Below are positions 2,228 through 63,879 of a DNA stretch of 64,000 bases, piece after piece. The stretch is from positions 714 through 64,713 of the forward strand of contig JAZKZG010000028.1 in the NCBI GenBank assembly GCA_045612565.1. The letters run 5' to 3'. Origin of the DNA: Eubacteriales bacterium (lineage in GTDB: Bacteria > Bacillota > Clostridia > Oscillospirales > QAKW01). Position 1 is the first letter of the stretch; the number at the start of each line of letters is the position of its first letter. Under the pieces are notes generated by a model. That model saw only the letters and a program-made list of their open reading frames with translations. It had not been told where the DNA came from and ran no database searches. A program made the position numbers and the translations under genes.

Positions 2228-3508
2228 ATGTTTAAATCAGGCTTTGCGAGGGTTGACGTAACACCGCCCCTTGGCACAATTTTAACAGGATATTTCAAAG
2301 ATCGTATTTCTGACGGAGTCCTTGACCCCATTCAGTTAAATGCCCTTGCAATAAACGACGGTGAAAAGACTGCGCTTATTATCACCAGTGACTTTATGTA
2401 TACAATTGAGGCGGCAATGAACCGCTTCCGTTCACTTATTGCAGCGACAACGGGCGTTGAAATGGACAATATTTTTATACAGTCTGTACATCAGCACACT
2501 TCTACTACAGCCGGTATAGGCGGACCGACCGATACCGTTTATCAGGACTTTTTAGAAAGAAAATACTGCGACGTTGCACGTATGGCAATTGATGATCTTG
2601 CAGATGCAACTGTTTCAATTGCAAGTAAAGAAACCGATGAAACCATTTCGTACATCCGCCGTTTTAAAATGAAAGACGGCTCGACAATAACAAACCCAAG
2701 CGACAGACGTCTTCCCGATGTTGTGGGACCGATAGGCAAGGCTGACAATACAGTTCGTATCGTTAGATTTACAAGAGAGGGCGCAAAGGATATCGCGCTT
2801 GTAAACTTCCAGACACACCCCGATGTTATCGGCGGCAACAAATTCTCGGCAGACTGGGCAGGTTTTACAAGAAGATTTTGTGAAAAAGATATTGAAAATA
2901 TACACTGCATCCTCGTTAACGGCTGTCAGGGTGACGTAAATCACATTAACCCCTATGACCGTCACGGCGGCTATATTCACAGTGAATTTATGGGCAGAAC
3001 AATTGCAAACACCGTTGTGGCTATATGGAATAAAACAGAACAAATTGACATTGATAAAATCACAACCAAAGTTGAATTCAAGCGTATCCCTTCAAATACC
3101 AACGGCATTGATAAAATCGACGAAGCAATTCAGTTTTACAGCGATTATCAGGCGGGTAAAATTGATAAACATCCAGGTATGATTATGCTTGGAAAAATAA
3201 GGAGAATTGCTGATATGGAACAGGTAAAACTCATTCAGCGTGTGCCCGTTTCAATGATCGCTTTTGGTAAAGTGGCACTTATCGGCTACGGCGGTGAGCC
3301 GTTCTCTGAGTACGCATACGTGCTTCGTGAGGCAAGACCCGATTTGCACATAATGACTGCGTGTCTTGCAAATGCGGCACAGGGCTATCTTCCGTCAGCG
3401 GAGGCATTTTCAGAGGGCGGATATGAGGCAGAAACCACTAACTTTACCGAGTCGGTAGCACCTGTTTTGCAAAATTGTGCAATTGATATGCTAAAAGAAA
3501 TATTATAA
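2228..3508 (+). CDS. neutral/alkaline ceramidase-like N-terminal-domain hydrolase (putative)
   Basis: 426 aa with RBS GGAGG upstream. The N-terminus MFKSGFARVDVTPPLGTILTGY...DPIQLNALAI...SVHQHTS resembles my memory of that family. The assignment is unverified. Confidence 0.55.
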   Translation: MFKSGFARVDVTPPLGTILTGYFKDRISDGVLDPIQLNALAINDGEKTALIITSDFMYTIEAAMNRFRSLIAATTGVEMDNIFIQSVHQHTSTTAGIGGPTDTVYQDFLERKYCDVARMAIDDLADATVSIASKETDETISYIRRFKMKDGSTITNPSDRRLPDVVGPIGKADNTVRIVRFTREGAKDIALVNFQTHPDVIGGNKFSADWAGFTRRFCEKDIENIHCILVNGCQGDVNHINPYDRHGGYIHSEFMGRTIANTVVAIWNKTEQIDIDKITTKVEFKRIPSNTNGIDKIDEAIQFYSDYQAGKIDKHPGMIMLGKIRRIADMEQVKLIQRVPVSMIAFGKVALIGYGGEPFSEYAYVLREARPDLHIMTACLANAAQGYLPSAEAFSEGGYEAETTNFTESVAPVLQNCAIDMLKEIL

Positions 3509-3843: not shown

Positions 3844-5244
3844 ATGGCTAACAAACGCACCAGATTTTGTGCTTTTCCGTCGGTTGTTCCTGCCGGCAGC
3901 AAAGCAAAAATTACTATTTTTCCTTGCGATATTTCAAGAAGATTCAGACGAGAGTACGAGTATGAGGTAGGCGTTATCGGTTTAGGCGACGATATGGTTC
4001 ACTACTATTACAAGGAGCCGCTAGATTTACCTTATGAGGTTGTTGACGGAACCTTACAATTTGAATATGATTTTTCGCGCGAGCAGGAATATAAAATCAC
4101 TTTTTGTAAAAAAGGTGAAAAGGAAGATGATTTGTCGGTGTATGCGCTTGATGGTGATCTTTATGAGCGCCGCGCACTGAAGGGTGATTTGCACACTCAC
4201 AGTTATTATTCCGATGGGGCTGACGGTGTTGCAATGACTCCCGCAAACTACCGTGAGCAAGGCTTTGACTTTTTTGCGCTCACCGACCATAACCGTATGT
4301 TTACTTCGGACTTTGCCAAAAAAAGCTTTGATGGTGTTGACCTCGGCATACATATAATGAACGGGGAAGAGATACACACCCCCGGCTCACTTGTTCACAT
4401 TGTAAACGTCGGCTCAAAGTACAGCGTTTGCGAAAAATACGTGCGTGACCCCGAAGGCTACGAAGCCGCTGTTGACGAGATTGAAAAAACGCTGATCGAC
4501 GTGCCCGAAACCTACCGCAGACGCGTAGCAATGGCGCACTGGGCGTGTAATGAGATACACAAAGCAGGCGGTATTGCAATTTTTGCCCATCCGTTCTGGA
4601 CACCGTATAAATTCAATCTTTCCGATGAGTTCCGAGATATTATATATAATCAGGATATTTTTGACGCCTTTGAGCTTATGGGCGGCTGTGGCTATAAAAG
4701 TTGTAACAAACAACTCGCGCTGTGGCACCAAAAGTGTATGGAAGGTCACAAGCTTCCGCCCGTCGGCAGTTCTGACTCACACAGTCACGAATACGCCAAC
4801 GGTAAATATGCACACAGATTTACAATTGTTTTTGCAAAGCAAAACACTACCGAGGCAATCCTTGAGGCAATAAAACAAGGATATACCGTTGCGGGTGACT
4901 TGACCGATGACGGAAGCGTTCGTTTTTACGGCGATTTGCGACTTGTATGCTTTGCGCATTTTATGTTTAATAACTATTTTGACAAAACAAAAGAACTGTG
5001 CGCAACCGAAGGCGCACTTATGCAGCGCTATGCTGCTGGCGAGGATGTTGGCAAGATAATCTCGGCACTCGCGCCGTCGGTTGAAAACTTTTATAAAAAG
5101 TTTTATGGGCTCACACCCGCGCCTGTTTTGTCAAAAGAACGTACAGAGTACCTTGACAAGCTTCTCGACGCACAAATCAACTCGGGAATTGTCACCAAAG
5201 GCTCGAACCTAGAACCCTATCCCCAAAAAGAACGCAGAGAATAA
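3844..5244 (+). CDS. PHP-domain metal-dependent phosphoesterase (CehA/McbA-like)
   Basis: 466 aa. LKGDLHTHSYYSDGADG and FFALTDHNRM are PHP-domain histidine motifs. RBS AAGGAG lies upstream. Confidence 0.75.
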   Translation: MANKRTRFCAFPSVVPAGSKAKITIFPCDISRRFRREYEYEVGVIGLGDDMVHYYYKEPLDLPYEVVDGTLQFEYDFSREQEYKITFCKKGEKEDDLSVYALDGDLYERRALKGDLHTHSYYSDGADGVAMTPANYREQGFDFFALTDHNRMFTSDFAKKSFDGVDLGIHIMNGEEIHTPGSLVHIVNVGSKYSVCEKYVRDPEGYEAAVDEIEKTLIDVPETYRRRVAMAHWACNEIHKAGGIAIFAHPFWTPYKFNLSDEFRDIIYNQDIFDAFELMGGCGYKSCNKQLALWHQKCMEGHKLPPVGSSDSHSHEYANGKYAHRFTIVFAKQNTTEAILEAIKQGYTVAGDLTDDGSVRFYGDLRLVCFAHFMFNNYFDKTKELCATEGALMQRYAAGEDVGKIISALAPSVENFYKKFYGLTPAPVLSKERTEYLDKLLDAQINSGIVTKGSNLEPYPQKERRE

Positions 5245-5281
5245 AAAGGGGTTATCGAGGACATCGACATTATCTCAATTT

Positions 5282-5307
5282 GTAGGGGCGATTCACGAAT
5301 CGCCCGT
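5282..5307. repeat. REP-like hairpin, copy 1 (GTAGGGGCGATTCACGAATCGCCCGT)
   Basis: Stem GGGCGATTC/GAATCGCCC. A second copy at 59908-59933 differs by a compensatory C>T / G>A pair. Confidence 0.7.
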
Positions 5308-6127: not shown

Positions 6128-6928
6128 TTATCTGTCCTCCTTTTCTTCGGGCGCACGGAAAGTATACATACCGCTTGTGTGCGCGAGTGTATCGGTTGTG
6201 GCAACATCAAAGTTTGCGGGTCCGTCAAGTTTTTTCTCCCAAAGCCGCAGGAGTATCGAGCAGACAATTGTAATGATGAGGTACATTGCCATCTCGATTA
6301 CAGCGGACGGGAAGTAGAGGTATGTGCGACCCACGATTGCACTGTGTGTTGCAAACAGTTCGGTGTAACCGATAATAAACATAACCGACGTATCTTTGAT
6401 GTTTATAATAAGGTTGTTGCCAATCTGCGGTAATATATTGCGCAGAGTCTGCGGTAAGATTACATACAGCATTGTCTGAAAATGTGTCATACCGATTGCC
6501 TTTGCGCCCTCGGTCTGACCAGGGTCGATTGAAAGGATACCACCTCGTACCGTTTCAGCCATATATGCACCTGTGTTGATTGAAACAACAAGGTATGCCG
6601 CAAAGATGGGGTCGAGCGAATAGCCAAAGAAATAGGGGGTTGCAAAAAAGATGAAAACCGCCTGTAAAATCATTGGCGTTCCGCGGAAAATTTCAACATA
6701 AGCGCGGATTATACCGCGGAGTGTATAGATTGCACCGCGCTTTATGATATTGTCTTTTTTTGAACAGGGGATTGTTTGCAAAATACCGCAAAGAAGACCG
6801 ATAATACAGCCGATGAACGTTGCAACAATAGCAAGTTCAAGCGTTTTTTGTGCGCCGACAAGGTACTGCGGAAGGTTGTTTTGCAAAAGTTTTACAATCT
6901 CCTGACCAAGCTTTAAAAACTTGTCCAT
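6128..6928 (-). CDS. polar amino-acid ABC transporter, permease
   Basis: 266 aa, multi-TM, with the EAA-like loop TEGAKAIGMTHFQTMLYVILPQ typical of HisM/GlnP-type permeases. It abuts the ATPase gene. Confidence 0.85.
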   Translation of the reverse strand: MDKFLKLGQEIVKLLQNNLPQYLVGAQKTLELAIVATFIGCIIGLLCGILQTIPCSKKDNIIKRGAIYTLRGIIRAYVEIFRGTPMILQAVFIFFATPYFFGYSLDPIFAAYLVVSINTGAYMAETVRGGILSIDPGQTEGAKAIGMTHFQTMLYVILPQTLRNILPQIGNNLIINIKDTSVMFIIGYTELFATHSAIVGRTYLYFPSAVIEMAMYLIITIVCSILLRLWEKKLDGPANFDVATTDTLAHTSGMYTFRAPEEKEDR

Positions 6929-6936
6929 ATTATAAA

Positions 6937-7773
6937 TTACTCACCGATAGGCTGAATTTTTGTAGCTTCACCCATAATCTCGTTAAAGTCATCAGCAGTC
7001 ATTTTGCCAAGAACTTTATCAATAGACTCTTTAAGAGCAGTGTTGCCTTTTTGAACAGAAACACCGATGTTGATGTCGCTGTCTGCAACTTCAAAGCCGT
7101 TTTCGCCCTCGAATGAGAGGATTTTCATATCGGGGTATGCAATAACTGCGCCCTGTGCTGTGGGCATATCGGTACAAACGAAGTCAACATCGCCTGTTTC
7201 AAGTGCCATAAGCATTGCAGGAGCGGTGTCTTTTGCTGTTTCGATTTTTGCACCTTCAATCTGGGGAAGGCAAGTGTCGTACCAGATTGTACCAAGCTGT
7301 GATGTACATTTGCCACCTGCGAGGTCAGAAAGTTTTGTTGCGTTTGCAAATTTAGAATCGTTTTTAACAAGGCATACGATTGATGCATAGAGATAAGGAC
7401 CTGCAAAGTCAACCTGCTGTGCGCGTTCGGGTGTCATTGACTGACCTGCGATAACAGCGTCAACTGTACCTGTCTGAACAGCGGGAACAAGTGAATCCCA
7501 GTCAAGACGAACGATTTCGAGTTCCCAACCGTTTTCTTCACAAATCTTTTTTGCCATCATAACGTCATAGCCGTTAGCGTACTCGTTTGTGTCTTTGATC
7601 GGAACAGCGCCGTTAGCGTCTGTGGGCTGTGACCAGTTATAAGGTGCATAAGCACATTCCATAGCAACGGTGAGTACACCGTCATCAACGCCTGCTGCGC
7701 CGCTCTTTGAGCATGATACCATTGCAAATGCAAGTACCATTACGAGTAAAAGTGCGATAATTCTTTTTTTCAT
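6937..7773 (-). CDS. amino-acid ABC transporter substrate-binding lipoprotein (predicted lysine/basic amino acid, from the riboswitch context)
   Basis: 278 aa with signal peptide and Cys (MVLAFAMVSCSK) and a family-3 SBP-like body. It is the first gene behind the L-box leader. Confidence 0.8.
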   Translation of the reverse strand: MKKRIIALLLVMVLAFAMVSCSKSGAAGVDDGVLTVAMECAYAPYNWSQPTDANGAVPIKDTNEYANGYDVMMAKKICEENGWELEIVRLDWDSLVPAVQTGTVDAVIAGQSMTPERAQQVDFAGPYLYASIVCLVKNDSKFANATKLSDLAGGKCTSQLGTIWYDTCLPQIEGAKIETAKDTAPAMLMALETGDVDFVCTDMPTAQGAVIAYPDMKILSFEGENGFEVADSDINIGVSVQKGNTALKESIDKVLGKMTADDFNEIMGEATKIQPIGE

Positions 7774-23024: not shown

Positions 23025-26000
23025 TTATTTTGCCATAAATGAATTATGGAGTGTATAAAGGATCTGTGATGCCTGTTCACGTGTTGCAGTATCGCGAGGA
23101 CCGAATGCACCTGTTGTGTGGCCGTTAATGATATCGGCTTTCTGACAAGCTGCAACTGCAGTTTTTGCGTAACCTGCAATGCTTGAAGCATCGTTAAATG
23201 TAACTGCTGCTTCTTTCTCGGTAAGAGTTATGTTCATAAACTTAGCGAAGTTTACAACCATTACACAAAGATCCTGACGGCTGATGTTCTTGTTAGGTTC
23301 AAAGGTTGTAGCCGATGTACCCGAAACAATGGCGTTATCATTTGCCCATTTAACAGCTGCTGCATAGTACTTGCCCTTTGCAACGTCGCTGAATTTGGTT
23401 GCTGCTGCTTTGTTTGCAGCATCGTCTGTTTTAACACCTGCCATACGAGCAAGAATTGTAACAAACATACCGCGGGTAACTGATTTGCCAACACCAAACT
23501 CTGTTTTGGTAACACCGCTTACAAAACCATAAGTTGTTACATAGTCAACAGCCTCTTTGTACCATGCCGACTTAACATCCTTGAATGTCTTTGAAGAATC
23601 GTTAGCTGTGAAGGGGAGTTTTGTGCCTTCTGCAGTAATCTTATTCTCTTTACCGCAAATTTCACAAGTTGCTGTTTGTGTACCGTCCTGTGTTGTTGTG
23701 GCATCCTTATTATACACATACTCGCCCCATACGTGATATTTATCACTTGAGGGGAAGTTTGCGTCTGCAACAGTGTTGGTTGCACGGCAACCATCTACTG
23801 TACACATAGCGGTTTTTGTACCGTTCTTTTCACATGTTGCTGTACCGTCGTAGGTATATTCGCCCCATGTATGAGCAACTGTTGATTTGAGATGCTCAGC
23901 ACTTACCTGTGTCTGAGATGCTCCGCAACCGTCTGCGCAAGTTCGTGTTTCTGAACCGTCTTTGCAACATGTTGCATCGTTGTTATATACCCACTCGCCC
24001 CAGTTATGAACGGTTTTGTTCATCGGATAGAGTTTTGAATTTTCTTTTGTGCTTTCAGTACCGCACCAGATACATTTACCTGTTTCGGTACCAACCTTTG
24101 AACAGGTTGCATCGTTGTTTGAAACATAAGTATCAACCTGGCAATCAACCATTGATTTGGGCTTTTCCACAACGGTTGTTGCATTACAACCTTTGTTTGA
24201 ACATGTTAATACCTGTGTACCGTTTTGCTGACATGTTGCGTCATTGTTATAAGTACCCGAAAGCGGCCATTTATGCTCAGTACAATCAGAAGCACCTGTC
24301 ATCTTAACTGTGTAAACCTGAGGATACTCTTCGCCCTCGAAAACATATGTGTATTTATAATAGTAAGATTTATTCTTGTCTACACCGCCAACGCTCTTAA
24401 GAGTAATTGTTGAAGGATCAAGCTGTTTTGTGCTGTTTTTGGTTGTTGCCCAATAACCTTTTGCTTCGCCGTCTGCAAATATAATCTCGATATCTGCAAG
24501 TGTACCGCCGTCAAAGATACGTGCAGTTACATTAAAGCCTTCAACCACAACGTCTCTTACTTTATCGGTTGTTGATTTTATTTCGATTGGTAACACATCT
24601 TCGCTTGATACTGTCTTTGCATAGTCAAAGTAGTATTTCTCGTTACCAAAAGCTTCTGTATAGATACCTGTAAGACCTGTTGTTGTATGTGCATCGTCTT
24701 TATCTGATACAAAAGTATTTTTCATCTTGGGATTGTTTGTCTCAAGACCGATATCAAATTCTGCGTCATTTTTATCGAAACCTACAAACCAGTTATCACT
24801 AACGTCACAGTTGCCGATAATCAAAAGATCTGCTTCTTTATAATAATCGTTCTTGAGTGATTTATTCTTTTCAATAAATCCTTTTTTCTTAGCGTTTGCA
24901 CCTGTCTGGAACGCTTTATTACCTTTTACTTCAAGTGATGAAACCATTGTTGATGATAAAGTAATATAGTATTTTGCAGTACCTGATGCAGATGATACAG
25001 CGTTGCAGAAGATGTTGTTATTAATAGTAACATCATAATTTTCGCCTGCTACGAGTCTGTATTTTTCGCCGCTGCCTCTGGGACCCTCAATAACTACAGG
25101 TGTAAGGTCGCTGTTTGCGTTACCGTTTCTGATATTTGAATTTATAAGTGTAAAGGAGCCATCCAAAACCGCCGCGCCGGTCTTGAAGTAACCTATTGTA
25201 TTATCTGCAGTTTCACCAAGTGATGCAAAGTCCATATAAAGACCGTCAATTGTAAGGTTTGCAGGAACAAAGTCGTTGAACAAACGAACAGCGTTTCTCA
25301 TATCTTTTACACAAGAATTCTTTAATGTAAATGAATCTGCATAGTTTTTATTGAAGTCTTCGTATTCAATTGACATATACTGATTTTCAATAAACTCAAT
25401 CTGTGAGTTATTTGAGTTTACTGAACGTTTGTTGATAAGATTGATTACTCTGTCAACGGTAGAAGTACCGATTTCATTTTTGATAAGACCTGCGTCTCTT
25501 TCGTCTTCAACTTTGTTCTTTCTGATGTGATAGATAACACTGTTGTTAACTGTGATGTCGAGGTTGTCGTATGCAATACCGTCTTTACCCATTGTTCTGA
25601 GTGTATCGTTGATCTGACCGCGGACTGTCATACCATCGAGGTATATTTCACCCTCAAGACCGTCTGCAAAATAAATTGTTTCAAACGATGTGTCTGCGTA
25701 CATACCCCATCTGCTGTCATATACCCAATCGTCACCTGATTCGCTTGTCGATTGTGATTTGTCAACAGGGTTGATACCTGCGTTAGTACCGTAGTAATTT
25801 GCAGGATAATCAAAAACGTATTTGCCGTATTCACCCGAGGGGAGAAGGATATTAGGCATATCAACACCTGTCATTTGTGTTCTGAGCATTGACATTGTGT
25901 CGAATACGAGTAAATTATCTACCTTAAATCTATAATAGGTCTCTCCAAGGAAGCCGTAACCGTAATAGTTGCCGTCATCTTCGAGTTCGCTCTCGATAAC

Positions 26001-27800
26001 AAATACTGCTGTGTCCTCAAACACAAACTTTTTACCTGCAAAATCAAAGCCGTTCTCCATAAATGAATCGTTGAAATCAACAGGAGTTGCAGCAAGAATT
26101 TTTATCTGGTAAACAGTTTGATACTCTTTTTCTTCTTCATAATAAGCACGGAGATAGAAGGTTGCCGTTTTGTTCTCGGCAATTTTTGCGGTATCAACTG
26201 TTTCAATAATTTCAGCAAAATCTGATGTAGCCGAAAGTTCATATTTAACTGTGCCTGTTGCAGCTGAATCGGGATTTGTTTTGAATACGGGAGTCACAAC
26301 GCCCTGCTCACCAAGACATTTGATTGAGATTAAGTCTGCACCGATTTCAATCTCGGTATCAGGACCGAATTCAACTTCTGTAATCTTGATTTTGCTTGAA
26401 AATTTCATATTATAATCATATATATATGAACCTGAGCACTCTGATGTATAGCCTCCAACGGTAGTGAAGGGTTCACCTGCTTCTTCCTTGTATCCGTCAA
26501 CAGTTTCTTTAACTGTTCCAACTGTAAAGTTGTCTTCGATAAACATAGGGACAGGAGCAACAGGCATTTTATCAAGCACACTCTTTACACCAAGTAATTT
26601 GTTGCCTGTAATTCTATATGTGTTTTCATTAACGATACCCTGATCTACGTTACTGTACAAAATAAGCGGAACAGGTGACGATGAATTCTCGGTTGTTGCA
26701 ACTACAAAGTTGTTTGTGATGTGAACAGTTGACCACGAACCGTCGGTAATATAGATAAAGCCGCCTGCCTGGTTTGTGTTGTACAATGTGTTATTGTCAT
26801 AATAAAGTTCACGTGTTGTTGCATTACCCTCGTTTTTCTGACAAAGGTTCCAGTAAGGTGATGTGCCTGTTGCCTTACGGCGCATATTTGAGTTTTTGAA
26901 AGTCATTGATGAATTTGCAAAATAACCTTTCAAATGGTCATTAGCCTTTTTAAAGAGCAGGTTTGTATCTGAAAAGTCGATGTACAGACCGTCAAATACC
27001 ATATGCGGAAAATGACGTATGTTATCGCCAAAGAAACGCGATGCACCATCTGATGTACCACCGATTGATTTGAGCCAGAAGTTCTGGAAAGTCAAAACGT
27101 CTTTACAGTTAACATCTTTGTTGTTATAGCCTGTAAGAATGTTTGTGTTTGTTTCAACACCGTCCATTTTACAGTTTTTGATGAGGTACTCAATAAACGC
27201 AGCACCTGTTGAACGCTCTTTACCGAGTGTTATGTACTTTGTGATGGTAAAACCGTAAACACCAACCCATGTTGAAGGTGTACCTTTAACAATGATTGAA
27301 CCGATCTTTGTTTCGTTTGCGGTATAGGCTGTGTTCTCAGTCCAGTCTTCACCGTTCGACTTGATACCAACTTTATTCATATCACCCATTTCGTTCATAG
27401 GTAATGTGTTCCAGTTAGTGCTGTATACATTAGACTCTGCCTCAATTACAAGGTCAGTGCCTGCTGTCCAACCGGTGATGATGATGTCAGGACGTACGAT
27501 TGATTTTTCTTTTGCATAAGCATAAGCCTCTTCAAGTGACTTGAAAGCATTAGTGCCAACAACAAAAGTATAGTCGTTGCCATCCCATTTACGGGTAACG
27601 GTTTTGCCGTTATCCTCTGTGATTGTGGTGTCTACAAGCAGAGCAGTGTTTGCAATCTGCGGAACACCTTCAACGGTAACTGCACATTCGTATGCAGTTG
27701 CAAACGGTGCGGCCTCTGCCACTGCAAAAACAGTTAGCATTGAAACCAACATAAACACCGTAAGTACCATTGATAAAACGCGGTTTAATGTTTTATTCAT
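23025..27800 (-). CDS. giant cell-surface protein with signal peptide, two beta-helix-like modules, a Cys-rich repeat region and three C-terminal SLH domains (S-layer-type)
   Basis: Start at ATG (complement 27798-27800) after RBS AAAGGAG, giving MNKTLNRVLSMVLTVFMLVSMLTVFAVAEA. SLH repeats lie at 23028-23585 (FKDVKSAWYKEAVDYV..., FSDVAKGKYYAAAVKW..., FNDASSIAGYAKTAVAAC...). Five repeats of HxWGEWxYNNDATCxxxGxxTxxCxxCG type lie at 23586-24284. Confidence 0.85.
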   Translation of the reverse strand: MNKTLNRVLSMVLTVFMLVSMLTVFAVAEAAPFATAYECAVTVEGVPQIANTALLVDTTITEDNGKTVTRKWDGNDYTFVVGTNAFKSLEEAYAYAKEKSIVRPDIIITGWTAGTDLVIEAESNVYSTNWNTLPMNEMGDMNKVGIKSNGEDWTENTAYTANETKIGSIIVKGTPSTWVGVYGFTITKYITLGKERSTGAAFIEYLIKNCKMDGVETNTNILTGYNNKDVNCKDVLTFQNFWLKSIGGTSDGASRFFGDNIRHFPHMVFDGLYIDFSDTNLLFKKANDHLKGYFANSSMTFKNSNMRRKATGTSPYWNLCQKNEGNATTRELYYDNNTLYNTNQAGGFIYITDGSWSTVHITNNFVVATTENSSSPVPLILYSNVDQGIVNENTYRITGNKLLGVKSVLDKMPVAPVPMFIEDNFTVGTVKETVDGYKEEAGEPFTTVGGYTSECSGSYIYDYNMKFSSKIKITEVEFGPDTEIEIGADLISIKCLGEQGVVTPVFKTNPDSAATGTVKYELSATSDFAEIIETVDTAKIAENKTATFYLRAYYEEEKEYQTVYQIKILAATPVDFNDSFMENGFDFAGKKFVFEDTAVFVIESELEDDGNYYGYGFLGETYYRFKVDNLLVFDTMSMLRTQMTGVDMPNILLPSGEYGKYVFDYPANYYGTNAGINPVDKSQSTSESGDDWVYDSRWGMYADTSFETIYFADGLEGEIYLDGMTVRGQINDTLRTMGKDGIAYDNLDITVNNSVIYHIRKNKVEDERDAGLIKNEIGTSTVDRVINLINKRSVNSNNSQIEFIENQYMSIEYEDFNKNYADSFTLKNSCVKDMRNAVRLFNDFVPANLTIDGLYMDFASLGETADNTIGYFKTGAAVLDGSFTLINSNIRNGNANSDLTPVVIEGPRGSGEKYRLVAGENYDVTINNNIFCNAVSSASGTAKYYITLSSTMVSSLEVKGNKAFQTGANAKKKGFIEKNKSLKNDYYKEADLLIIGNCDVSDNWFVGFDKNDAEFDIGLETNNPKMKNTFVSDKDDAHTTTGLTGIYTEAFGNEKYYFDYAKTVSSEDVLPIEIKSTTDKVRDVVVEGFNVTARIFDGGTLADIEIIFADGEAKGYWATTKNSTKQLDPSTITLKSVGGVDKNKSYYYKYTYVFEGEEYPQVYTVKMTGASDCTEHKWPLSGTYNNDATCQQNGTQVLTCSNKGCNATTVVEKPKSMVDCQVDTYVSNNDATCSKVGTETGKCIWCGTESTKENSKLYPMNKTVHNWGEWVYNNDATCCKDGSETRTCADGCGASQTQVSAEHLKSTVAHTWGEYTYDGTATCEKNGTKTAMCTVDGCRATNTVADANFPSSDKYHVWGEYVYNKDATTTQDGTQTATCEICGKENKITAEGTKLPFTANDSSKTFKDVKSAWYKEAVDYVTTYGFVSGVTKTEFGVGKSVTRGMFVTILARMAGVKTDDAANKAAATKFSDVAKGKYYAAAVKWANDNAIVSGTSATTFEPNKNISRQDLCVMVVNFAKFMNITLTEKEAAVTFNDASSIAGYAKTAVAACQKADIINGHTTGAFGPRDTATREQASQILYTLHNSFMAK

Positions 27801-27852
27801 AAGTTTACACTCCTTTGTAAATTTTATGCTGAGCATATGAATAGACATATTT

Positions 27853-27881
27853 ATTATATTATTAATGTTTTTCAATGTCAA
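27853..27881 (-). promoter_or_regulatory. perfect-consensus sigma-A promoter of the SLH protein gene
   Basis: Reverse strand: TTGACA (27876-27881), a 17-nt spacer, TATAAT (27853-27858). Confidence 0.7.
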
Positions 27882-27909
27882 CCAAAATTGCAACTCAATA
27901 AAACCAATA

Positions 27910-28074
27910 TTTTTTTTGATATTTTTTTGAAAAATTTTTTTGTCTTTATGGGACATTTTTTTGTCATTATGAGTATCTATCTTTTTTGTTTTTTGTGAAT
28001 ATTTAACAAAGTTTTTTAAAAAATTTTTATATATACAACAACCAAACAAACACGAATTCACAATTTAATTTTTT
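27910..28074. other. AT-rich spacer with nine T5-T8 tracts (A-tracts on the - strand); UP-element/curved DNA candidate
   Basis: T-runs start at 27910, 27922, 27935, 27956, 27982, 27989, 28012, 28024 and 28069. Several spacings are about 12, 13, 21 and 23 bp. Confidence 0.5.
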
Positions 28075-58269: not shown

Positions 58270-58803
58270 TCAGCTTTCCATTTGTTTTGCCATAAACGTT
58301 GCCGCGGCGGAAAGCAGTTTGAGGTCGCTTTCGGTTGCGCTCTTTCCGCTTGTTTCAACAAACGCAATAACACCCATAATGTCACCCGATGAAATAATGG
58401 GACTTGCCGCAATAATTGAGGGCGACGATTTATCGGCAGTAAGGGGGATTTCGCCTGTGTCAGAAAGATAATTCTTTCGGCGGTCGATAAGTTCTTCGCA
58501 CTCGGTGCTTATACTTTGCTCAAGAACCTCTCGGGTTCCTTTTCCCGAAAATGCGATTACGTTGTCACTGTCGCATACCGCGCAGTAAAGACCTGAGGCA
58601 GAATATAGCGATGCGCAGAGGTCGGACGCGTGACTTGACAGATCGGTGATGGGGGAGTATTTTTTAAAGATGACACCGCCATCTTTGTCGGTGTAAATCT
58701 CTAATGGATCTCCTTCTCTTATCCGCATCGTGCGGCGGATTTCTTTGGGTATAACCACACGACCTAAATCGTCAATTCTTCTCACAATACCTGTTGCTTT
58801 CAT
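58270..58803 (-). CDS. spoVT: stage V sporulation protein T (AbrB-type N-domain plus GAF-like C-domain)
   Basis: 177 aa. MKATGIVRRIDDLGRVVIPKEIRRTMRIREGDPLEIYTD... is the SpoVT/AbrB swapped-hairpin domain. Confidence 0.9.
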   Translation of the reverse strand: MKATGIVRRIDDLGRVVIPKEIRRTMRIREGDPLEIYTDKDGGVIFKKYSPITDLSSHASDLCASLYSASGLYCAVCDSDNVIAFSGKGTREVLEQSISTECEELIDRRKNYLSDTGEIPLTADKSSPSIIAASPIISSGDIMGVIAFVETSGKSATESDLKLLSAAATFMAKQMES

Positions 58804-58931
58804 ATATAAATCTCCTTTAAAAACAAAATCGTGATACTATTATTTGTGATTTGTGGGAATTTATACTGTCCAACTTTACTTTTTAGAGCAACTATGGTAT
58901 AATTATTAAAAATTATTCGAGGGGCACAAAT

Positions 58932-59702
58932 ATGAATAAATTTTCTGCATTTTTGACTAATTTCTTTCTAACTGCATTTCGTCACATAGGGTCTATTGTG
59001 ATTTCTATAATCCTGATTGTAGTCGGTGTAATATGGTCTAAAGTTTGTTTTTACATAGGATTGTTTTTAATTATCTCAAATATAATTGTTGCTTTTGTCG
59101 GTGCAATTCGTATGCAAAATATTATGAATTATCGTTCTGATGATGACCCCGAATTCAATGAAATGATGGAAAAATTGACTGCTGACCCAAAATCTTTTTT
59201 ATCCGAGATAATGGAAGCGCAAGAAGAAAATAGACATTTACATGGCGAAGATTTATTATCCCTTTCGGATGACGATTTGTTTGAAACTATCTATTTTCAA
59301 AACGTTGATATTGCAGAAGAAGCCGAGGACGAAGATAAAGAAATAGAACAATTTACAGGTGCTCGCAAAACAGTTTATGTTTTAGGCTTATTTGATTCAG
59401 AAATTCAAAATGGTGGTCTTTGCCAATTTTTCGTAAACTCATCAAGAGTTGTTGCACCGTATGTTAGTGAATCGCTAAAAAGTGTTGGAGCGAACGAACA
59501 CCTAAATCTTTTTGAAGAGTTTATCACAGCAAATAACATCGATATTTCTAATCTCGAATCATTTAAAGTATACAGTATAAGAGGATTCAAAAAGCAAACC
59601 AAACGGTTCGACTTTGATTCATTTGATGATAAATATTATGAATTGCCTGCATTACAAGAAAAAGTAGTTGCATACATCAAAAATAATATAAAAGAGTTTT
59701 AA
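58932..59702 (+). CDS. membrane-anchored DUF4375 (DMP19-like) domain protein
   Basis: Two N-terminal TM helices are followed by FDSEIQNGGLCQFFVNSS...LKSVGA, which matches my memory of the DUF4375/DMP19 C-terminal domain signature (NGGfxQff.N). Extended -10 TGgTATAAT lies upstream. Confidence 0.65.
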   Translation: MNKFSAFLTNFFLTAFRHIGSIVISIILIVVGVIWSKVCFYIGLFLIISNIIVAFVGAIRMQNIMNYRSDDDPEFNEMMEKLTADPKSFLSEIMEAQEENRHLHGEDLLSLSDDDLFETIYFQNVDIAEEAEDEDKEIEQFTGARKTVYVLGLFDSEIQNGGLCQFFVNSSRVVAPYVSESLKSVGANEHLNLFEEFITANNIDISNLESFKVYSIRGFKKQTKRFDFDSFDDKYYELPALQEKVVAYIKNNIKEF

Positions 59703-59704
59703 CT

Positions 59705-59880
59705 AAAAGCGAGGGGAGTTTCCCCTCGCTTTTGCTATGTAACGGTCAGAATATGCTATTTTTCGTCAAAAATTTTTCTTCAAAAATTGCCCGAAACCCC
59801 AGTATTTATAAGGCTTTGTCGCACTTTTGTGTTATTATAACACCAGCATCTATTCTACGAACTATTCCTGTTGCTTTCAT
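59705..59880 (-). repeat. 176-bp direct repeat DR1 (terminator hairpin, conserved spacer, 24-codon AbrB-N-terminus stub ORF 59806-59880)
   Basis: About 80% identical to 62370-62545. The hairpin is GCGAGGGGA-gtt-TCCCCTCGC. The stub is MKATGIVRRIDAGVIITQKCDKAL*. Confidence 0.85.
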
Positions 59881-59907
59881 ATATAAATCAATCTTCTTGT
59901 TATCTTC

Positions 59908-59933
59908 GTAGGGGTGATTCACGAATCACCCGT
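59908..59933. repeat. REP-like hairpin, copy 2 (GTAGGGGTGATTCACGAATCACCCGT)
   Basis: Same 26-mer as 5282-5307 with a compensatory stem change. It sits between the stub ATG and its -10-like box. Confidence 0.7.
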
Positions 59934-60109
59934 TTGGCTTTCGTGCATATTTTCAAATTGTATTGTTACTATCTGTATTTTGAGGAGATTTATACTGTAA
60001 AGGAAAATCATTTTGCGTCCACAACCGGTAGTTGTATAAATTACTATTTGCAGTTTATTGATTTCTGGCATATTTGACTGTAAAATAAAAACAGATAGGA
60101 GGCTATGTT

Positions 60110-61687
60110 ATGACTATAGGTAAAGCAATAAATAAACTGAGAAATGATGCAAATATTTCCCAAGAACAGTTCGCAACACTGTTCGGGGTTTCACAGCAAT
60201 CCGTTCAAAAATGGGAAAACGGTGATTCTGTTCCGGAACTTAGCAAAATCATAAAAATTTCCAAGCATTTTGGCGTTTCGCTTGATGCGTTGATTTTAGG
60301 GAACGACAACCGCATTGTAGAAGAAATGAAAGGAACTAATCAAATAAAGCCGCAGTACGCAAATATTCACGATTGGGAATTTTATTCATCCAATTTGATG
60401 ACGGAATATCAGCAATCTATAGAAGAAGGGCTGGATATCGAAGCATATAAGGATGTTTTTTCGGCCGTAGCAAGACTTCCAAAGGATGAACACAAGAAAA
60501 AAATTGGGGACACCCTTTTCGAAATCGTAATAAATGCAAAACAAAAAGAAGGCTATCCATATATTGAACCGTCCAACCTTGAAGCCATCAAAGATTTGAG
60601 AAAGCCTTATGTTTATAAGAATAACAGCCCCTTGGATCTGGAAGATAAAATTCACGGTGCATGGATGGGCAGAATTTGCGGATGTATGGTGGGCAAGACT
60701 GTAGAAGGTATCCGCACAAACGAGTTGGTTCCCTTCCTAAAGGAAACCGGCAATTATCCTATGCACAGATATATTCTGCAGAGTGACCTGAGTGACGAAA
60801 TTTTAAACAAATACAAATATCATTTTCCAAGCAAATGCTATGCCGACGCCATAGACGGAATGCCGGTGGATGACGATACCAACTACACCGTTCTTTATCA
60901 AGAAATCGTCCAAAAATACGGCAGAGATTTTACCCCTTTTGATGTTTCACGTGCTTGGCTGCATTATCAGCCTAAAGATGCCTATTGCACCGCTGAAAGA
61001 GTAGCTTTCTGCAACTTTGTAAAAGGATATACGCCGCCGGAATCTGCCATTTATAAAAACCCCTATCGTGAATGGATCGGCGCACAAATACGAGCCGACT
61101 ATTTTGGATATATTAACCCGGGCAATCCCGAACTTGCTGCCGAAATGGCGTGGCGCGATGCCTCGATCTCTCACACGAAGAACGGAATCTACGGCGAAAT
61201 GTTTGTGGCAGCGATGTTGGCTGTTGCGGCAGAAACAAAGAATATCAAAGATATTATACTCGGTGGACTTGCACAGATTCCACACACATCCAGATTACAC
61301 GAAGATATTATGTTCGTAGTGGACGGATTTGAAAACGGTGTTTCTCAAAGCGAATGCTTTAAGAGCATTCACGAAAAGTATGACGAGCACAGCGCTCACG
61401 ATTGGTGCCACACCATTTCTAATGCAATGATTGTAGCGGCCTCTTTGCTCTATGGTGGCGGAGATTACGGCAAATCCATCTGTATGTCTGTTGAAACAGG
61501 TTTCGACACCGATTGTAACGGTGCTACCGTTGGTTCGATTTTAGGTATGGCAAACGGAATTGAAAGTATTCCAAAGTGCTGGATAGAACCGATAAACGAT
61601 ACACTTCACACTTCTATTTTCGGTATTGATACTGTCAAAATCAGCGATAGAGTAAACTTGACAATGGAGCATATCAGGGGGAAATAA
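60110..61687 (+). CDS. XRE-family HTH fused to an ADP-ribosylglycohydrolase (ARH/DraG-like) domain
   Basis: The N-terminus IGKAINKLRNDANISQEQFATLFGVSQQSVQKWENG is an XRE HTH. The ARH blocks are GAWMGRICGCMVGKTVEG, VDDDTNYTVL and VETGFDTDCNGATVGSILGMANGIESIP. Confidence 0.8.
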   Translation: MTIGKAINKLRNDANISQEQFATLFGVSQQSVQKWENGDSVPELSKIIKISKHFGVSLDALILGNDNRIVEEMKGTNQIKPQYANIHDWEFYSSNLMTEYQQSIEEGLDIEAYKDVFSAVARLPKDEHKKKIGDTLFEIVINAKQKEGYPYIEPSNLEAIKDLRKPYVYKNNSPLDLEDKIHGAWMGRICGCMVGKTVEGIRTNELVPFLKETGNYPMHRYILQSDLSDEILNKYKYHFPSKCYADAIDGMPVDDDTNYTVLYQEIVQKYGRDFTPFDVSRAWLHYQPKDAYCTAERVAFCNFVKGYTPPESAIYKNPYREWIGAQIRADYFGYINPGNPELAAEMAWRDASISHTKNGIYGEMFVAAMLAVAAETKNIKDIILGGLAQIPHTSRLHEDIMFVVDGFENGVSQSECFKSIHEKYDEHSAHDWCHTISNAMIVAASLLYGGGDYGKSICMSVETGFDTDCNGATVGSILGMANGIESIPKCWIEPINDTLHTSIFGIDTVKISDRVNLTMEHIRGK

Positions 61688-61746
61688 AATAACCGTCATA
61701 GGAAGTGCAAATGAAGTGAAATAAACGAAACGTAAGGAGTATTTTA

Positions 61747-62382
61747 ATGAAAATAACGATACAACAAGACACAAAGAGTATTTTTCCGTATATTACGTAT
61801 GAGCCCGAAACCTTGACCGACCGTCCCGCGTTAATCATTCAGCTTCACGGTGCCGGTGAACGAGGAGACGGAGGGGTGGATATCAAAAAGGTGCTTGTTT
61901 ACGGATTTTCTAAAATCGCAAACGACAGCAACCTGAAAAATTGTATTTTAGTTATGCCGCAATGTCCCACAGATACCTTCTGGGTTGCCAAAATAGAAAG
62001 TCTTAAAAAATTCATTGATGAAATGATCCATAAATACTCCGTTGATGTCAATCGTGTATATCTTTGCGGCTTGAGTATGGGCGGATATGGAACGTGGTAT
62101 ACTGCTATGGCATATCCAGATTTGTTTGCTGCTATAGTACCTTGCTGTGGTGGGGGTATGGCATGGAATGCAGATGTGCTCAAAATGCCTATATGGGCAT
62201 TTCACGGATTGAAAGACACCACAGTTTCTCCAACGCAAACAATCGAGATGGTAGAAAAGTTGAAAGGTAAAAATCCCGATCTGAAATATAATTTATACGA
62301 AGGTGTAGGACATAATTGTTGGGATAATGCCTTTTCGGAAGAAACATTGAGTTGGTTATTGTCACATACAAAAGCGAGGTGA
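61747..62382 (+). CDS. alpha/beta-hydrolase esterase (carboxylesterase / predicted peptidase type)
   Basis: 211 aa with nucleophile elbow GLSMGGYG plus downstream D and H (FHGLKDTTV, GVGHNCW). Confidence 0.75.
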   Translation: MKITIQQDTKSIFPYITYEPETLTDRPALIIQLHGAGERGDGGVDIKKVLVYGFSKIANDSNLKNCILVMPQCPTDTFWVAKIESLKKFIDEMIHKYSVDVNRVYLCGLSMGGYGTWYTAMAYPDLFAAIVPCCGGGMAWNADVLKMPIWAFHGLKDTTVSPTQTIEMVEKLKGKNPDLKYNLYEGVGHNCWDNAFSEETLSWLLSHTKAR

Positions 62383-62545
62383 ATTTCACCTCGCTTTTGC
62401 TATGTATTTGTCAATATATGCTTTTTTCGTCAAAAAACTTTCTTAAAAAAATCGCTTGAAAAGTCAGTATTTATAAGGGTTTATCGCACTTTTGTGTTAT
62501 TATTATATCCGCCTCTATTCTACGAACAATTCCTGCTGCTTTCAT
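62370..62545 (-). repeat. 176-bp direct repeat DR2 (terminator hairpin, conserved spacer, 24-codon stub ORF 62471-62545)
   Basis: The hairpin is GCGAGGTGA-att-TCACCTCGC, compensatory relative to DR1. The stub is MKAAGIVRRIEADIIITQKCDKPL*, with RBS AGGAG 13 nt upstream. Confidence 0.85.
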
Positions 62546-62631
62546 AATATATAATAATCTCCTCGCTTTACAAATTTGTACTGCCCACATCAGTAAAACA
62601 AGCAGATTTATACTGACTATATTTTCAAATA

Positions 62632-63879
62632 TTATTCTAATTCCAAAGCCTTTTTATAATTTTCAACCTGTTTCTCAGTGGGTTTGAAATCCGGTTGAGA
62701 ACAGCAAGGCAGCGTCGGTTTGGTGCCGTCCGTGTTGTAGAACGGCGACAACCGGTCGTTTTCATAGAGTTTGCAGTCCTCTTCCTTGGTAAAATCGGGA
62801 ATGTCATACGGCTTACCACCTTCAAGCATTGAGCGATGAGCAAGAATTGCTACAGAAGACATATTGATGGCGCTGTATATATCAAAAGGATGTTCCGGTT
62901 GTTTGCCTTGCTTTATGCAGTCAAGGAATACACGGCAGGTTAAATAATCCCCACCACCGTGACCGCTGGTTTTGAATATTTCTTCATCAGGGTCGTTCCA
63001 CTTGGGCTCATACAGATTTACCGCATCCATATCCTCGGGCTTTGACCAGCTGTTATAACGGAGCATGATCTTGTTACCCATTCCACGTAAATTTTCTATC
63101 TGTCCATTGGTTCCGCATATTCTATACGCATTATGATGTGCGCCAAATGCCGCACAACCGGTTACTCTGAAAATAGAACCGTCATCATTTTGAGTTGTAA
63201 TAATAGAAACCCCGTCACCGCCAAAACTCGCCGTGGGAACATCACCCTCTACAGGTGCAAAGGAAGCGAAGGAGGTTACCTTCTTAGGAGTTGCCCCGGT
63301 TGCCCACATAATAGGGCCCAAAGAATGCGTTACATAATAACTTCCCGGCAAGAAATTGCGCCAATGCCCGGGAAAATAGTTATATACTTTTTTAAACGTT
63401 GTATCATTCGGGTTGACGGGATGATTATATTCACCTTCAGCATAAAGAATTTTACCCAAAGTTCTACCGTCGCAAACACGCTTCATTTCACGGTTGAATA
63501 TCATTTGAGGGTAGTTTTCTGCAAGCATATAAATACTATTGCTCTTTTCAAATGCTTTTAGCAGTTCTATACCCTCTGCCATAGTACCGTTACTGATGCA
63601 TTCGCTGAAAACGTGAATTCCTTTTTCAAAACATTTTATAGCGTACGGCGCGTGATCATAAAAATAGTTTGCAATCACTACAGCATCCAGACCGTGGCCG
63701 AGGAAAGCATCAAAATCGGAATAAACTGCCGTATCAGTTCCTACTTTTTTAGTTGCCGCATCTAAACGTTCTTTATTAAAATCGCATATAGCGACAATAT
63801 CAGCTCCAAGAAGCATAAAATCCCTTGCGAGATCCATTCCTCTGCCAACACCAAAAATACCCATTTTAATTTTTTTCAT
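62632..63879 (-). CDS. Gfo/Idh/MocA family oxidoreductase
   Basis: ATG (complement 63877-63879) lies 9 nt after AAGGAG. MKKIKMGIFGVGRGMDLARDF is the Rossmann N-terminus. About 415 aa. Confidence 0.8.
   Translation of the reverse strand: MKKIKMGIFGVGRGMDLARDFMLLGADIVAICDFNKERLDAATKKVGTDTAVYSDFDAFLGHGLDAVVIANYFYDHAPYAIKCFEKGIHVFSECISNGTMAEGIELLKAFEKSNSIYMLAENYPQMIFNREMKRVCDGRTLGKILYAEGEYNHPVNPNDTTFKKVYNYFPGHWRNFLPGSYYVTHSLGPIMWATGATPKKVTSFASFAPVEGDVPTASFGGDGVSIITTQNDDGSIFRVTGCAAFGAHHNAYRICGTNGQIENLRGMGNKIMLRYNSWSKPEDMDAVNLYEPKWNDPDEEIFKTSGHGGGDYLTCRVFLDCIKQGKQPEHPFDIYSAINMSSVAILAHRSMLEGGKPYDIPDFTKEEDCKLYENDRLSPFYNTDGTKPTLPCCSQPDFKPTEKQVENYKKALELE

Follow-up and report, generated by a model that had tools for sequence, protein, structure and literature searches.

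Repeated units at the start of spoVT

The present analysis concerns a 64,000-nucleotide (nt) stretch of an Eubacteriales bacterium genome (contig JAZKZG010000028.1), hereafter called the window, in which an array of small gene cassettes lies at the start of spoVT, the gene of a regulator essential for sporulation. The intact spoVT gene (58270-58803, minus strand) anchors the array. It encodes 177 amino acids (aa) and matches the Pfam families SpoVT_C (7.5e-29) and MazE/AbrB (4.7e-12). Upstream and on the same strand lie two copies of a repeated unit, each made of a stub that begins like spoVT, a tail and a terminal hairpin. Unit 1 occupies 59705-59881 (stub open reading frame (ORF) 59806-59880, tail 59735-59848) and unit 2, which is more decayed, 62370-62546 (stub ORF 62471-62545). 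Both are of class Ia (see below) and were scored by nhmmer at 174 bits (E 1e-51) and 144 bits, respectively. They form a direct repeat of 177 nt with 81% identity (81-83% across comparisons), close to the about 80% given in a preliminary description of this DNA. No further unit copies were found in the 64-kb window.

The units have in common with the real gene a 41-nt core composed of the end of the 5′ untranslated region (5′ UTR) and codons 1-11. It lies at 58772-58812 (minus strand) in spoVT and recurs at 59849-59889 and 62514-62554, with 85% and 68% identity to the reference copy, giving three copies in the window. A search with ATGAAAGCAACAGGAATTGT, allowing up to three mismatches, returned exactly three matches in the 64 kb, all on the minus strand (58803, 59880 and 62545; chance expectation 0.01), and these are the three co-oriented AbrB-type starts recognised earlier. 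The stub peptides are also those previously listed, MKATGIVRRIDAGVIITQKCDKAL and MKAAGIVRRIEADIIITQKCDKPL, the second carrying a Thr4Ala change. The six codon differences reported between stub 1 and spoVT over codons 1-11 were recovered, and all six are synonymous. The two domains SpoVT_C and MazE/AbrB were found at 58270-58803 only, the stubs being devoid of a complete AbrB-type swapped-hairpin N-domain (about 50 aa).

Each unit ends in a hairpin. Hairpin 1 (59705-59734), a palindromic two-way terminator, lies at the stop of the first cargo gene, and hairpin 2 (62369-62399), which has the canonical family sequence AAAAGCGAGGTGAATTTCACCTCGCTTTT, encloses the TGA stop of a hydrolase gene. The compensatory stem change noted previously between them is a T-A to G-C replacement. 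The terminator hairpin was not found elsewhere in the window. This 30-nt terminal hairpin was the only inverted repeat found in the window units, whose ends are not inverted repeats of each other.

All three starts are preceded by a CAGTATAAAT box, whose 5′ base is located 66 nt (spoVT), 118 nt (stub 1) and 71 nt (stub 2) upstream of the ATG. The current spoVT promoter and 5′ UTR extend over 58804-58869 (minus strand), with the ACAGTATAAAT box, a probable -35 element, at 58859-58869; window positions 58886-58826 match the promoter of a stub in a relative (L001, 7143-7203). The stub-1 promoter and 5′ UTR (59882-59998, minus strand; box 59988-59998) have a weakened ribosome-binding site, AAGAAGA, and a REP-like (repetitive extragenic palindrome-like) hairpin inserted at 59912-59931, which is part of the extra leader length, as had been proposed. 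In the stub-2 promoter region (62547-62616, minus strand; box 62606-62616) the -10 region is degraded. The box had been described as -10-like; its presence upstream of all three starts holds, and the label is probably wrong. Together with a GATAATA-like sequence 17 nt further on, the box probably constitutes a forespore (sigma-G/F-type) promoter, in which it would be the -35 element (GTATA), since spoVT of B. subtilis is sigma-G dependent. As a side observation, the REP-like hairpin of stub 1 is 90% identical over 29 nt to window positions 5279-5307. GC-rich REP-like hairpins between promoter and ribosome-binding site occur in stubs and in some real spoVT genes; further ones of this kind were seen at L001 7215-7265 and at L147 1224-1296 and 2270-2350.

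The gene modules between the starts are on the plus strand and correspond to those described earlier. Cassette 1 carries a DMP19/DUF4375-family gene (58932-59702, 256 aa; Pfam PF14300, 1.6e-19) with a GC content of 0.31-0.34, compared to about 0.40-0.48 in the flanks. It is preceded by a divergent sigma-A-type promoter at 58875-58903 (TTTACT, 17 nt, TGgTATAAT; 10/12 matches, TG present). Cassette 2 carries two genes assigned by Pfam: one encodes a 525-aa protein with HTH_3 (helix-turn-helix) and ADP-ribosylglycohydrolase (ARH) domains (60110-61687, with a promoter-like site at 60058-60086), the other a 211-aa alpha/beta hydrolase (61747-62382), whose TGA stop falls within hairpin 2. No other products than DMP19, HTH-ARH and hydrolase proteins are encoded by the window cassettes. 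The distal boundary of the array in the window is a GFO/IDH/MocA oxidoreductase gene (62632-63879, minus strand; Pfam), in a region without synteny to relatives. Exact-protein look-up returned no record for the window SpoVT, for its 100%-identical cluster representative or for the GFO protein. Positions 1-53000 of the window surround the chromosomal origin of replication (DnaA, gyrase B and A, ParA/ParB pairs, GidA/GidB, an SMC/RecF-type domain protein), and some 6 kb separate spoVT from gyrA. The minus strand has a very long ORF of 1678 aa at 23025-28061.

The unit family in other genomes

When 185,579 species genomes were scanned for the hairpin pattern, at least 119 stretches of other genomes were retrieved that contain a sequence identical to hairpin 2. 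A nhmmer profile derived from the two window copies was then applied to 119 loci; since the hairpin had been the sole criterion for retrieval, this sample does not favour spoVT. A count of copies in other genomes, proposed in the preliminary description as a check, gave about 100 full units, with at least one in 70 of the 119 loci. The titles of the best 80 of the at least 119 hairpin matches all designate uncultured Oscillospiraceae, Acutalibacteraceae, Faecousia or other Clostridia-type metagenome-assembled genomes (MAGs), and among the hairpin matches listed several titles name ruminant gut samples. The hairpin pattern had no match in 2.9 million viral contigs, nor the unit in PLSDB plasmids, and no vehicle was identified in these collections.

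Where the sequence reaches far enough, the position of the units is constant. Of the 70 unit loci, 20 have an intact, co-oriented spoVT at a distance of 0.3-4.8 kb on the downstream side, and none has the gene in any other position; 34 loci end less than 1.5 kb from the last unit and are uninformative in this respect. At 26 loci, 2-4 co-oriented units follow each other with a typical spacing of 0.7-1.3 kb, and then comes the real spoVT (for example L102, L009, L070, L036, L106 and L010). The widespread cassette array anchored at spoVT is a real feature of these genomes. In three control species, the spoVT neighbourhoods were stable and had no units. Among the papers listed by full-text searches of the literature, none describes this spoVT locus.

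Unit 1 of the window is 89-90% identical to units in L108, L114, L009 and L078, although SpoVT of L009 is only 49% identical to that of the window (about 50% for such genomes), which speaks for horizontal spread of the cassettes. Being closer to units of distant genomes than to its neighbour, unit 1 cannot derive from local duplication and decay, and the in-place decay with segmental duplication that had been considered for the two repeats is rejected. No relative was found to have a full-length abrB paralogue at the position of a stub, which would have meant simple decay.

Close relatives, with SpoVT proteins 92%, 88% and 84% identical to that of the window, have kept the genes downstream of spoVT, whereas their upstream genes are unrelated. 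Copies of the unit or of its hairpin lie upstream of spoVT in these relatives. The downstream synteny (PocR/AraC, EamA and a gene of 627-633 aa) is conserved in L001, L002, L146 and L147. In L147 (SpoVT 88% identical) the order is spoVT, leucine-rich repeat (LRR) gene, class II stub with hairpin, DMP19 gene, as compared with spoVT, DMP19 gene, unit 1 in the window; the DMP19 gene is in the second cassette position in the one and in the first in the other. The difference between the two loci amounts to one block comprising tail, hairpin, cargo, promoter and 5′ codons. This extra block in L147 is exactly the product expected of one insertion-duplication, the direction of the event being inferred rather than observed. 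At the other end of the window array, the stub-2 promoter is 80% identical over 101 nt to the promoter and start of the real spoVT of L002 and, as in L002, it lies 16 nt past the stop of the gene that precedes it on the same strand. Judging from this resemblance, the stub-2 promoter is probably the one that ancestrally drove spoVT and was later displaced. L146 is a metagenome contig from a close relative that carries an array in another sample (L147), and it begins 82 nt upstream of spoVT. Such a break at repeats is expected from short-read fragmentation, so arrays may be under-represented in MAGs.

Modular organisation of units and cargo

A unit fills the space between the stop codon of a cargo gene and the start of the following one, and measures 190-330 nt. 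In the direction of spoVT it begins with the reverse complement of a cargo start region including its ribosome-binding site (TCACCGCCTTT). Then comes, in most units, a sigma-A-like promoter with an extended -10, which reads ATTTACTTTTT...TGTGATATAAT on the cargo strand and whose window copy is the one at 58875-58903 described above. It is followed by the GCAGTATAAAT box, 17 nt and a GATAATA-like sequence; by a ribosome-binding site, an ATG and spoVT codons 1-11; by a tail of about 115 nt; and by the palindromic hairpin, beyond which conservation ends abruptly. The promoter segment also precedes real spoVT genes and is conserved across about 150 anchors (stubs and real genes together). Invariant blocks in tail and hairpin are GTTATAATA, ATAAAYACT and ATACATAGCAAAAGCGAGGTGAA..TTCACCTCGCTTTT, and the tail carries the conserved motif CATAAAYACTGGG.

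Reduced units exist. In L147 a promoter box is fused straight to the hairpin, and in L034 a hairpin is followed by the cargo promoter only. In the L034 locus the hairpin stands alone, as terminator after each of three tandem genes downstream of a promoter box (1156-1192, 3107-3143 and 4339-4375), one of these solitary hairpins being the copy that precedes only the conserved cargo promoter. They look like arrays after loss of stub and tail. The hairpin contains GCGAGGTGA on both strands (the TGA is at 62380-62382 in the window) and thereby offers an in-frame TGA stop to ORFs entering from either side. ORFs stopped in this way are the window hydrolase and class II stubs (...AR*), such as those of the L040 unit (2087-1880) and of L010 (1265-1447).

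We then considered structural features of the tail. About 12 nt past the stub/tail junction, a nearly invariant TATAAT (TGTTATAAT in class Ia) points to the hairpin (alignment columns 46-56; window copies at 59833-59838 and 62498-62503). In class Ia it is contained within a 15-nt palindrome, GTGTTATAATAACAC. An internal promoter and a binding site are both conceivable roles for it. In class Ib the tail forms a nearly invariant 52-nt two-tier hairpin with CAUAAACACU in the loop, and an analogous fold of different sequence is predicted for class Ia, which is suggestive only. Folding z-scores of tails range from -3.4 to -6.7, and an RNA or protein-binding role for the tail is possible. Five pairs of the terminator show compensatory changes, and the class Ia consensus fold predicts the terminator alone. 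The 5′ helices of class Ia, taken from the structure of unit 1, are 76-81% paired without any compensatory change; the covariation check suggested earlier gave nothing beyond the terminator in this class. A search of Rfam with the window region and three related loci gave no match (units at E up to 5) and nothing near the gathering score.

In three genomes, and in more than one stub class, codons 3-5 of the stub are interrupted by an insertion of about 104 nt that has an 8-nt duplication (GCAACAGG) at its flanks: L147 1335-1437, L148 ~6889-6992 and L023 ~1575-1680. Compensatory changes among the copies (GCGTCC..GGACG versus GCTGCC..GGCAG) indicate a structured element; it has no Rfam match and could be a small mobile element targeting the invariant core.

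The stubs fall into two main classes. Class I stubs have codons 1-11 in common with SpoVT and form ORFs of 24 aa (30 copies), 20 aa (22), 12 aa (9) and also 22 and 26 aa; as they end at differing stops, the tail is not coding. Class II stubs have 34 codons in common with SpoVT, followed by about 24 in-frame codons up to the hairpin TGA. The resulting ORF of 58-60 aa (SpoVT residues 1-34 + xTTLTxxDRFCxAIHSVVERYK..AR) was seen at about 16 loci, including L010, L040, L057, L093 and L114. Its ratio of nonsynonymous to synonymous substitution (dN/dS) is 0.05 over codons 1-34 and 0.6 in the tail; judged by these values, it is probably not a protein under selection, though the frame is open up to the hairpin. 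The protein-level conservation noted for stub 1 is general: codons 2-10 of class I stubs have a dN/dS of 0.07 with a synonymous divergence (pS) of 0.60. Such conservation is better explained if the stubs once served, or can still be swapped in, as working 5′ ends of spoVT than if they encoded a functional peptide.

Alleles of the 5′ end are indeed exchanged between stubs and real genes. Identical 20-nt alleles (codons 5-11) are found on stubs and on real spoVT genes in different genomes. That of stub 1 in the window is the commonest, present in 19 anchors from 16 loci (11 full units and 8 tail-less starts, several of them real spoVT genes). Among six close relatives, third-position identity over codons 2-11 varies from 0.2 to 1.0 and does not follow the value for the remaining codons (0.49-0.67). 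The first 47 nt of spoVT are identical between the window and L147, whose genes are 79% identical overall. Alleles differ less within a locus (3.48 differences) than between loci (4.93; p = 0.001), and pairs of stub and real gene differing by at most 1 nt make up 12 of 44 same-locus pairs as against 7.6% of different-locus pairs.

Linkage was analysed with 70 distinct units. Its polymorphisms fall into separate linkage blocks, namely the promoter box, the 5′ UTR, the codons of the stub, the tail, which behaves as one block over positions 33-150, and the sequence past the hairpin. Excess association is 0.02 between stub codons and the adjoining tail, compared to 0.18 between tail segments about 100 nt apart, and Mantel correlations are r = 0.00 for stub versus UTR and r = 0.15 for stub versus tail. 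The breaks coincide with the invariant stretch of ribosome-binding site, ATG and GCAACAGG, with the end of homology with the real gene and with the invariant hairpin. This pattern fits recombination that needs short perfect homology; a fixed crossover site is not required, nor is it excluded.

Between the units, 66 modules were delimited, with a median length of about 1 kb (inserts of about 0.5-4 kb). By our own count, module genes run opposite to the stub only in 45 cases, in the same direction only in 10 and in both in 10. Opposite-strand cargo ends at or inside the hairpin. Cargo boundaries are ORF-precise, the 5′ one lying next to AAAGGCGGTGA and the 3′ one next to AAAGCGAGGTGA. A recombination core made of the cargo ribosome-binding site AAAGGCGGTGA and the similar hairpin arm AAAGCGAGGTGA was considered and dropped, as both resemble the Shine-Dalgarno consensus. 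The cargo is diverse: 85 of 109 ORFs are singletons without a relative among the rest. According to Pfam and PADLOC, the families include GH127 and other glycosidases, esterases, MTHFR, methionine synthase, GNAT and glycosyltransferase proteins, as well as DMP19, Abi_alpha, TIR, parts of type I/IIG restriction-modification systems and SoFic. No recombinase is found among the 25 most frequent Pfam families of 74 scanned cargo proteins. Pairs of cassettes sharing cargo also share the block from stub start to hairpin, without the crossover point being located; this was seen with BLAST, which replaced an ungapped comparison of the flanks of shared cargo families spoiled by indels.

Origin of the arrays and known systems

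We lean towards the view that homology-driven insertion-duplication assembled a cassette array at the spoVT start and that the two repeats of the window are the scars of its junctions. The mobile cassette would be a short DNA, usually with one gene, carrying the hairpin terminator and tail of about 115 nt on one side and, on the other, a copy of spoVT sequence reaching from the promoter through the 5′ UTR to codon 11 (codon 34 in the second class). Recombination of this copy with the promoter and 5′ end of the resident spoVT would insert the cassette in the Campbell manner. spoVT would remain intact, driven by one copy of promoter and N-terminal codons, and the other copy would be stranded upstream, fused to the cassette tail and terminator: the stub. 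Repeated events would yield [stub unit][cargo][stub unit][cargo][spoVT]. In the window, cassette 1 would then extend over about 58813-59848 with the DMP19 gene, and cassette 2 over about 59890-62513 with the HTH-ARH and hydrolase genes, stub 2 bearing the displaced ancestral promoter. The crossovers would depend on homology, using the longest invariant stretches (the core of ribosome-binding site and ATG, the end of homology at codon 11, and the hairpin), and would rely on host functions rather than on a locally encoded recombinase. The suggestion, made from the first inspection, of duplications left by cassette insertion at an AbrB-like 5′ end is upheld in substance by the wide occurrence of the unit, upstream of spoVT and co-oriented with it, by the diverse single-gene modules and by the one extra cassette of predicted form in a close relative. 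We make no claim on polarity, that is, on whether the newest cassette is always beside spoVT, as unit scores show no trend with distance in L102 and L009.

Several observations weigh against insertion-duplication by homology. Homologous recombination does not account for dozens of unrelated ORFs that share one ribosome-binding site and one terminator, always with the same spacing. The tail is conserved far above the synonymous sites of the adjoining stub, as if it had a function of its own, for example as a recombinase-binding site or an RNA; our explanation is that tails spread with the cassettes, whereas the 5′ codons are resident or converted from resident copies. The same 312-aa cargo is joined to a class II tail in L040 and to a class I tail in L102, with identity beginning right past the hairpin. 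Tail and cargo are thus not always linked, which is at odds with a simple circle model, and extra recombination at the hairpin has to be assumed. At three unit loci, 4 kb or more of downstream sequence includes no complete spoVT. Neither circular intermediates nor empty sites nor insertions or deletions distinguishing strains were observed, and two metagenome scans for cassette polymorphism among strains, using species-specific spoVT words of 29 and 32 nt, returned nothing. Finally, no tyrosine- or serine-recombinase motif was detected near the arrays, in a crude regular-expression search of 4-10 kb on each side whose limits also tell against host-driven insertion.

The same array might have been built by a dedicated, integron-like site-specific system acting in trans, with a recombinase encoded elsewhere or RNA-guided, and this we regard as possible, if clearly less probable. 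Candidate recognition elements are the core of ribosome-binding site, ATG and GCAACAGG, the tail motif CATAAAYACTGGG and the palindromic hairpin. Such a system would account for a tail and hairpin better conserved than neighbouring synonymous sites, for sharp linkage breaks at three fixed places, for the ORF-precise cargo boundaries beside AAAGGCGGTGA and AAAGCGAGGTGA, for the independent structured insertion of about 104 nt at the same GCAACAGG site in three genomes, and for the frequent capture that cargo diversity implies. However, besides the lack of a recombinase motif, only spoVT and an AraC-family group recur within 4-10 kb of the arrays (by a crude clustering of neighbours). A single fixed crossover point is hard to reconcile with a stub/tail junction that is found at codon 11 or at codon 34, depending on the class. 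The breaks fall where the invariant stretches are longest, as is also expected from homology-dependent recombination, and the unit is neither an attC-like imperfect palindrome nor matched in Rfam. We therefore entertain only tentatively a gene-capture platform of Oscillospirales, functionally equivalent to integrons and docking at the spoVT start by means of a dedicated trans recombinase or the tail RNA, in which a modular unit of about 330 bp would supply promoter, ribosome-binding site and terminator to captured ORFs. What keeps it under consideration is mainly the capture of ORFs at a fixed distance, for which homologous recombination does not account. It is unlikely, in turn, that each unit is a functional small gene paired with its cargo, whether a ~130-nt RNA running from the TATAAT to the hairpin or a SpoVT-like peptide or protein, so that arrays would result from co-transfer of regulator and cargo and not be recombination scars. 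Every unit does contain promoter, ribosome-binding site, start codon and terminator; the extended -10 (TGTTATAAT) 12 nt past the junction is conserved; the class Ib hairpin presenting CAUAAACACU, the analogous Ia fold and the z-scores point to structure; and class II units retain their 58-60 aa ORF up to the hairpin TGA. Yet the class I frame varies after codon 11, the class II tail has a dN/dS of 0.6, compensatory pairs of class Ia are confined to the terminator, and the shortened units of L034 and L147 keep cargo promoter and hairpin without stub and tail. The expression signals of the window stubs are degraded as well (the stub-1 ribosome-binding site, the stub-2 -10 region) and no Rfam family is matched, so that the family of small transcripts or peptides formerly envisaged stands much weakened.

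Two further explanations are less probable still. A purely local history, in which an abrB/spoVT paralogue decayed in place and the segment was duplicated within the genome, could be suggested by two similar copies within 2.7 kb and by a loose alignment of part of the tail with spoVT codons 12-20 (GGT...GTTATA..AAAG). It is already contradicted by the occurrence of the unit in about 70 loci of many genera, by window copies less alike than unit 1 and its distant counterparts, by the lack of a full-length paralogue at a stub position in relatives and by the absence of synteny upstream of spoVT among them; we hold it for highly improbable. Equally hard to credit is a dispersed element of the MITE (miniature inverted-repeat transposable element) or REP type, with a spoVT-like end by chance and inserting in many intergenic regions. 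The hairpin recurs alone as a terminator after tandem genes (e.g. in L034) and REP-like hairpins are inserted in several units, but full units are co-oriented with each other and with the downstream spoVT, none of the 70 loci has one misplaced, no other copy exists in the 64-kb window and terminal inverted repeats are missing. On balance, homology-driven insertion-duplication is the mechanism we favour over a trans-acting site-specific system, possible as that is, and over the doubtful small-gene family.

If correct, homology-driven insertion-duplication at spoVT defines a widespread and easily recognised hotspot of gene gain in abundant gut Clostridia, where glycosidase, esterase, methyltransferase, restriction, abortive-infection and immunity-like genes would arrive singly with promoter and terminator. 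It would represent a natural form of non-disruptive insertion, the target gene being kept working by a swap of promoter and N-terminus. As the spoVT promoter would be exchanged at each event, expression of a sporulation gene may be affected. The unit provides a simple signature for mining the mobile gene pool of uncultured Oscillospirales, and raises the question whether cassette arrays can arise and turn over without an integron integrase, and how new cassettes form.

The arrays share features with several known systems. Like cassettes of integrons, and of the CALINs (attC clusters without integrase, many of them with no integrase nearby; 10.1101/030866), they hold mostly single, co-oriented and diverse ORFs, with a conserved repeat starting at or inside the stop codon. 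Integron attC sites are imperfect palindromes of 57-141 bp with inverse core and core (R) boxes; the spoVT unit is not, and with its 190-330 nt it contains promoter, ribosome-binding site, gene-start codons and terminator. Integron cassettes are promoterless and expressed from a common Pc, whereas most spoVT units have their own predicted sigma-A-like promoter and ribosome-binding site. The integron anchor is attI next to intI; that of the spoVT array is a gene start, and no intI was found by the regular-expression search (4-10 kb on each side). In the survey cited above, all Firmicutes genomes analysed were without complete integrons (10.1101/030866), and a platform equivalent to integrons, were that reading true, would be a hitherto unrecognised feature of this phylum. 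In the rAID-1 clusters of Bacteroidales, varied small accessory genes are lined up in arrays, and the repetitive sequences between them are 'reminiscent of integrons' (10.1101/471110). They too belong to gut bacteria, and some spoVT-array cargo is immunity- or defence-like (DMP19, TIR, Abi, restriction-modification). However, a conserved XerD-family recombinase heads the rAID-1 array, whereas spoVT arrays are headed by spoVT with no recombinase within reach, and their cargo does not consist mainly of immunity genes.

Insertion in the 5′ end of a conserved, housekeeping-type gene is known from SXT/R391 elements (prfC) and from dusA elements such as IMEVchUSA3, which bring a new promoter and N-terminal codons, so that expression of the target continues, and are flanked by short direct repeats of the target 5′ end (PMC8409611). 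The likeness is that spoVT remains intact beside the cassettes, that stubs and real genes exchange 5′ alleles and that the 41-nt core is repeated at the ends. In contrast, SXT and dusA elements measure 20-100 kb and possess their own integrase, excision factor and transfer functions, while the spoVT inserts are of about 0.5-4 kb, usually with one gene and no recombinase found, and form arrays of up to four or more. Minimal mobile elements of Neisseria are variable genes between conserved flanks, exchanged by homologous recombination (PMC3787668). As with these, the closest relatives of the window differ in gene content at a fixed locus. Minimal mobile elements have two different core-gene flanks and leave no scars, whereas in spoVT arrays one flank would be duplicated at each event, the cassettes carrying their own copy. 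The closest parallel in layout is a laboratory technique, Campbell-type insertion-duplication, in which a circle with promoter and 5′ fragment of a gene integrates by one crossover and generates a truncated and an intact copy within a direct repeat. We know of no instance of its natural, recurrent use for gene capture across species. Its product is exactly the arrangement of stub and intact spoVT described here.

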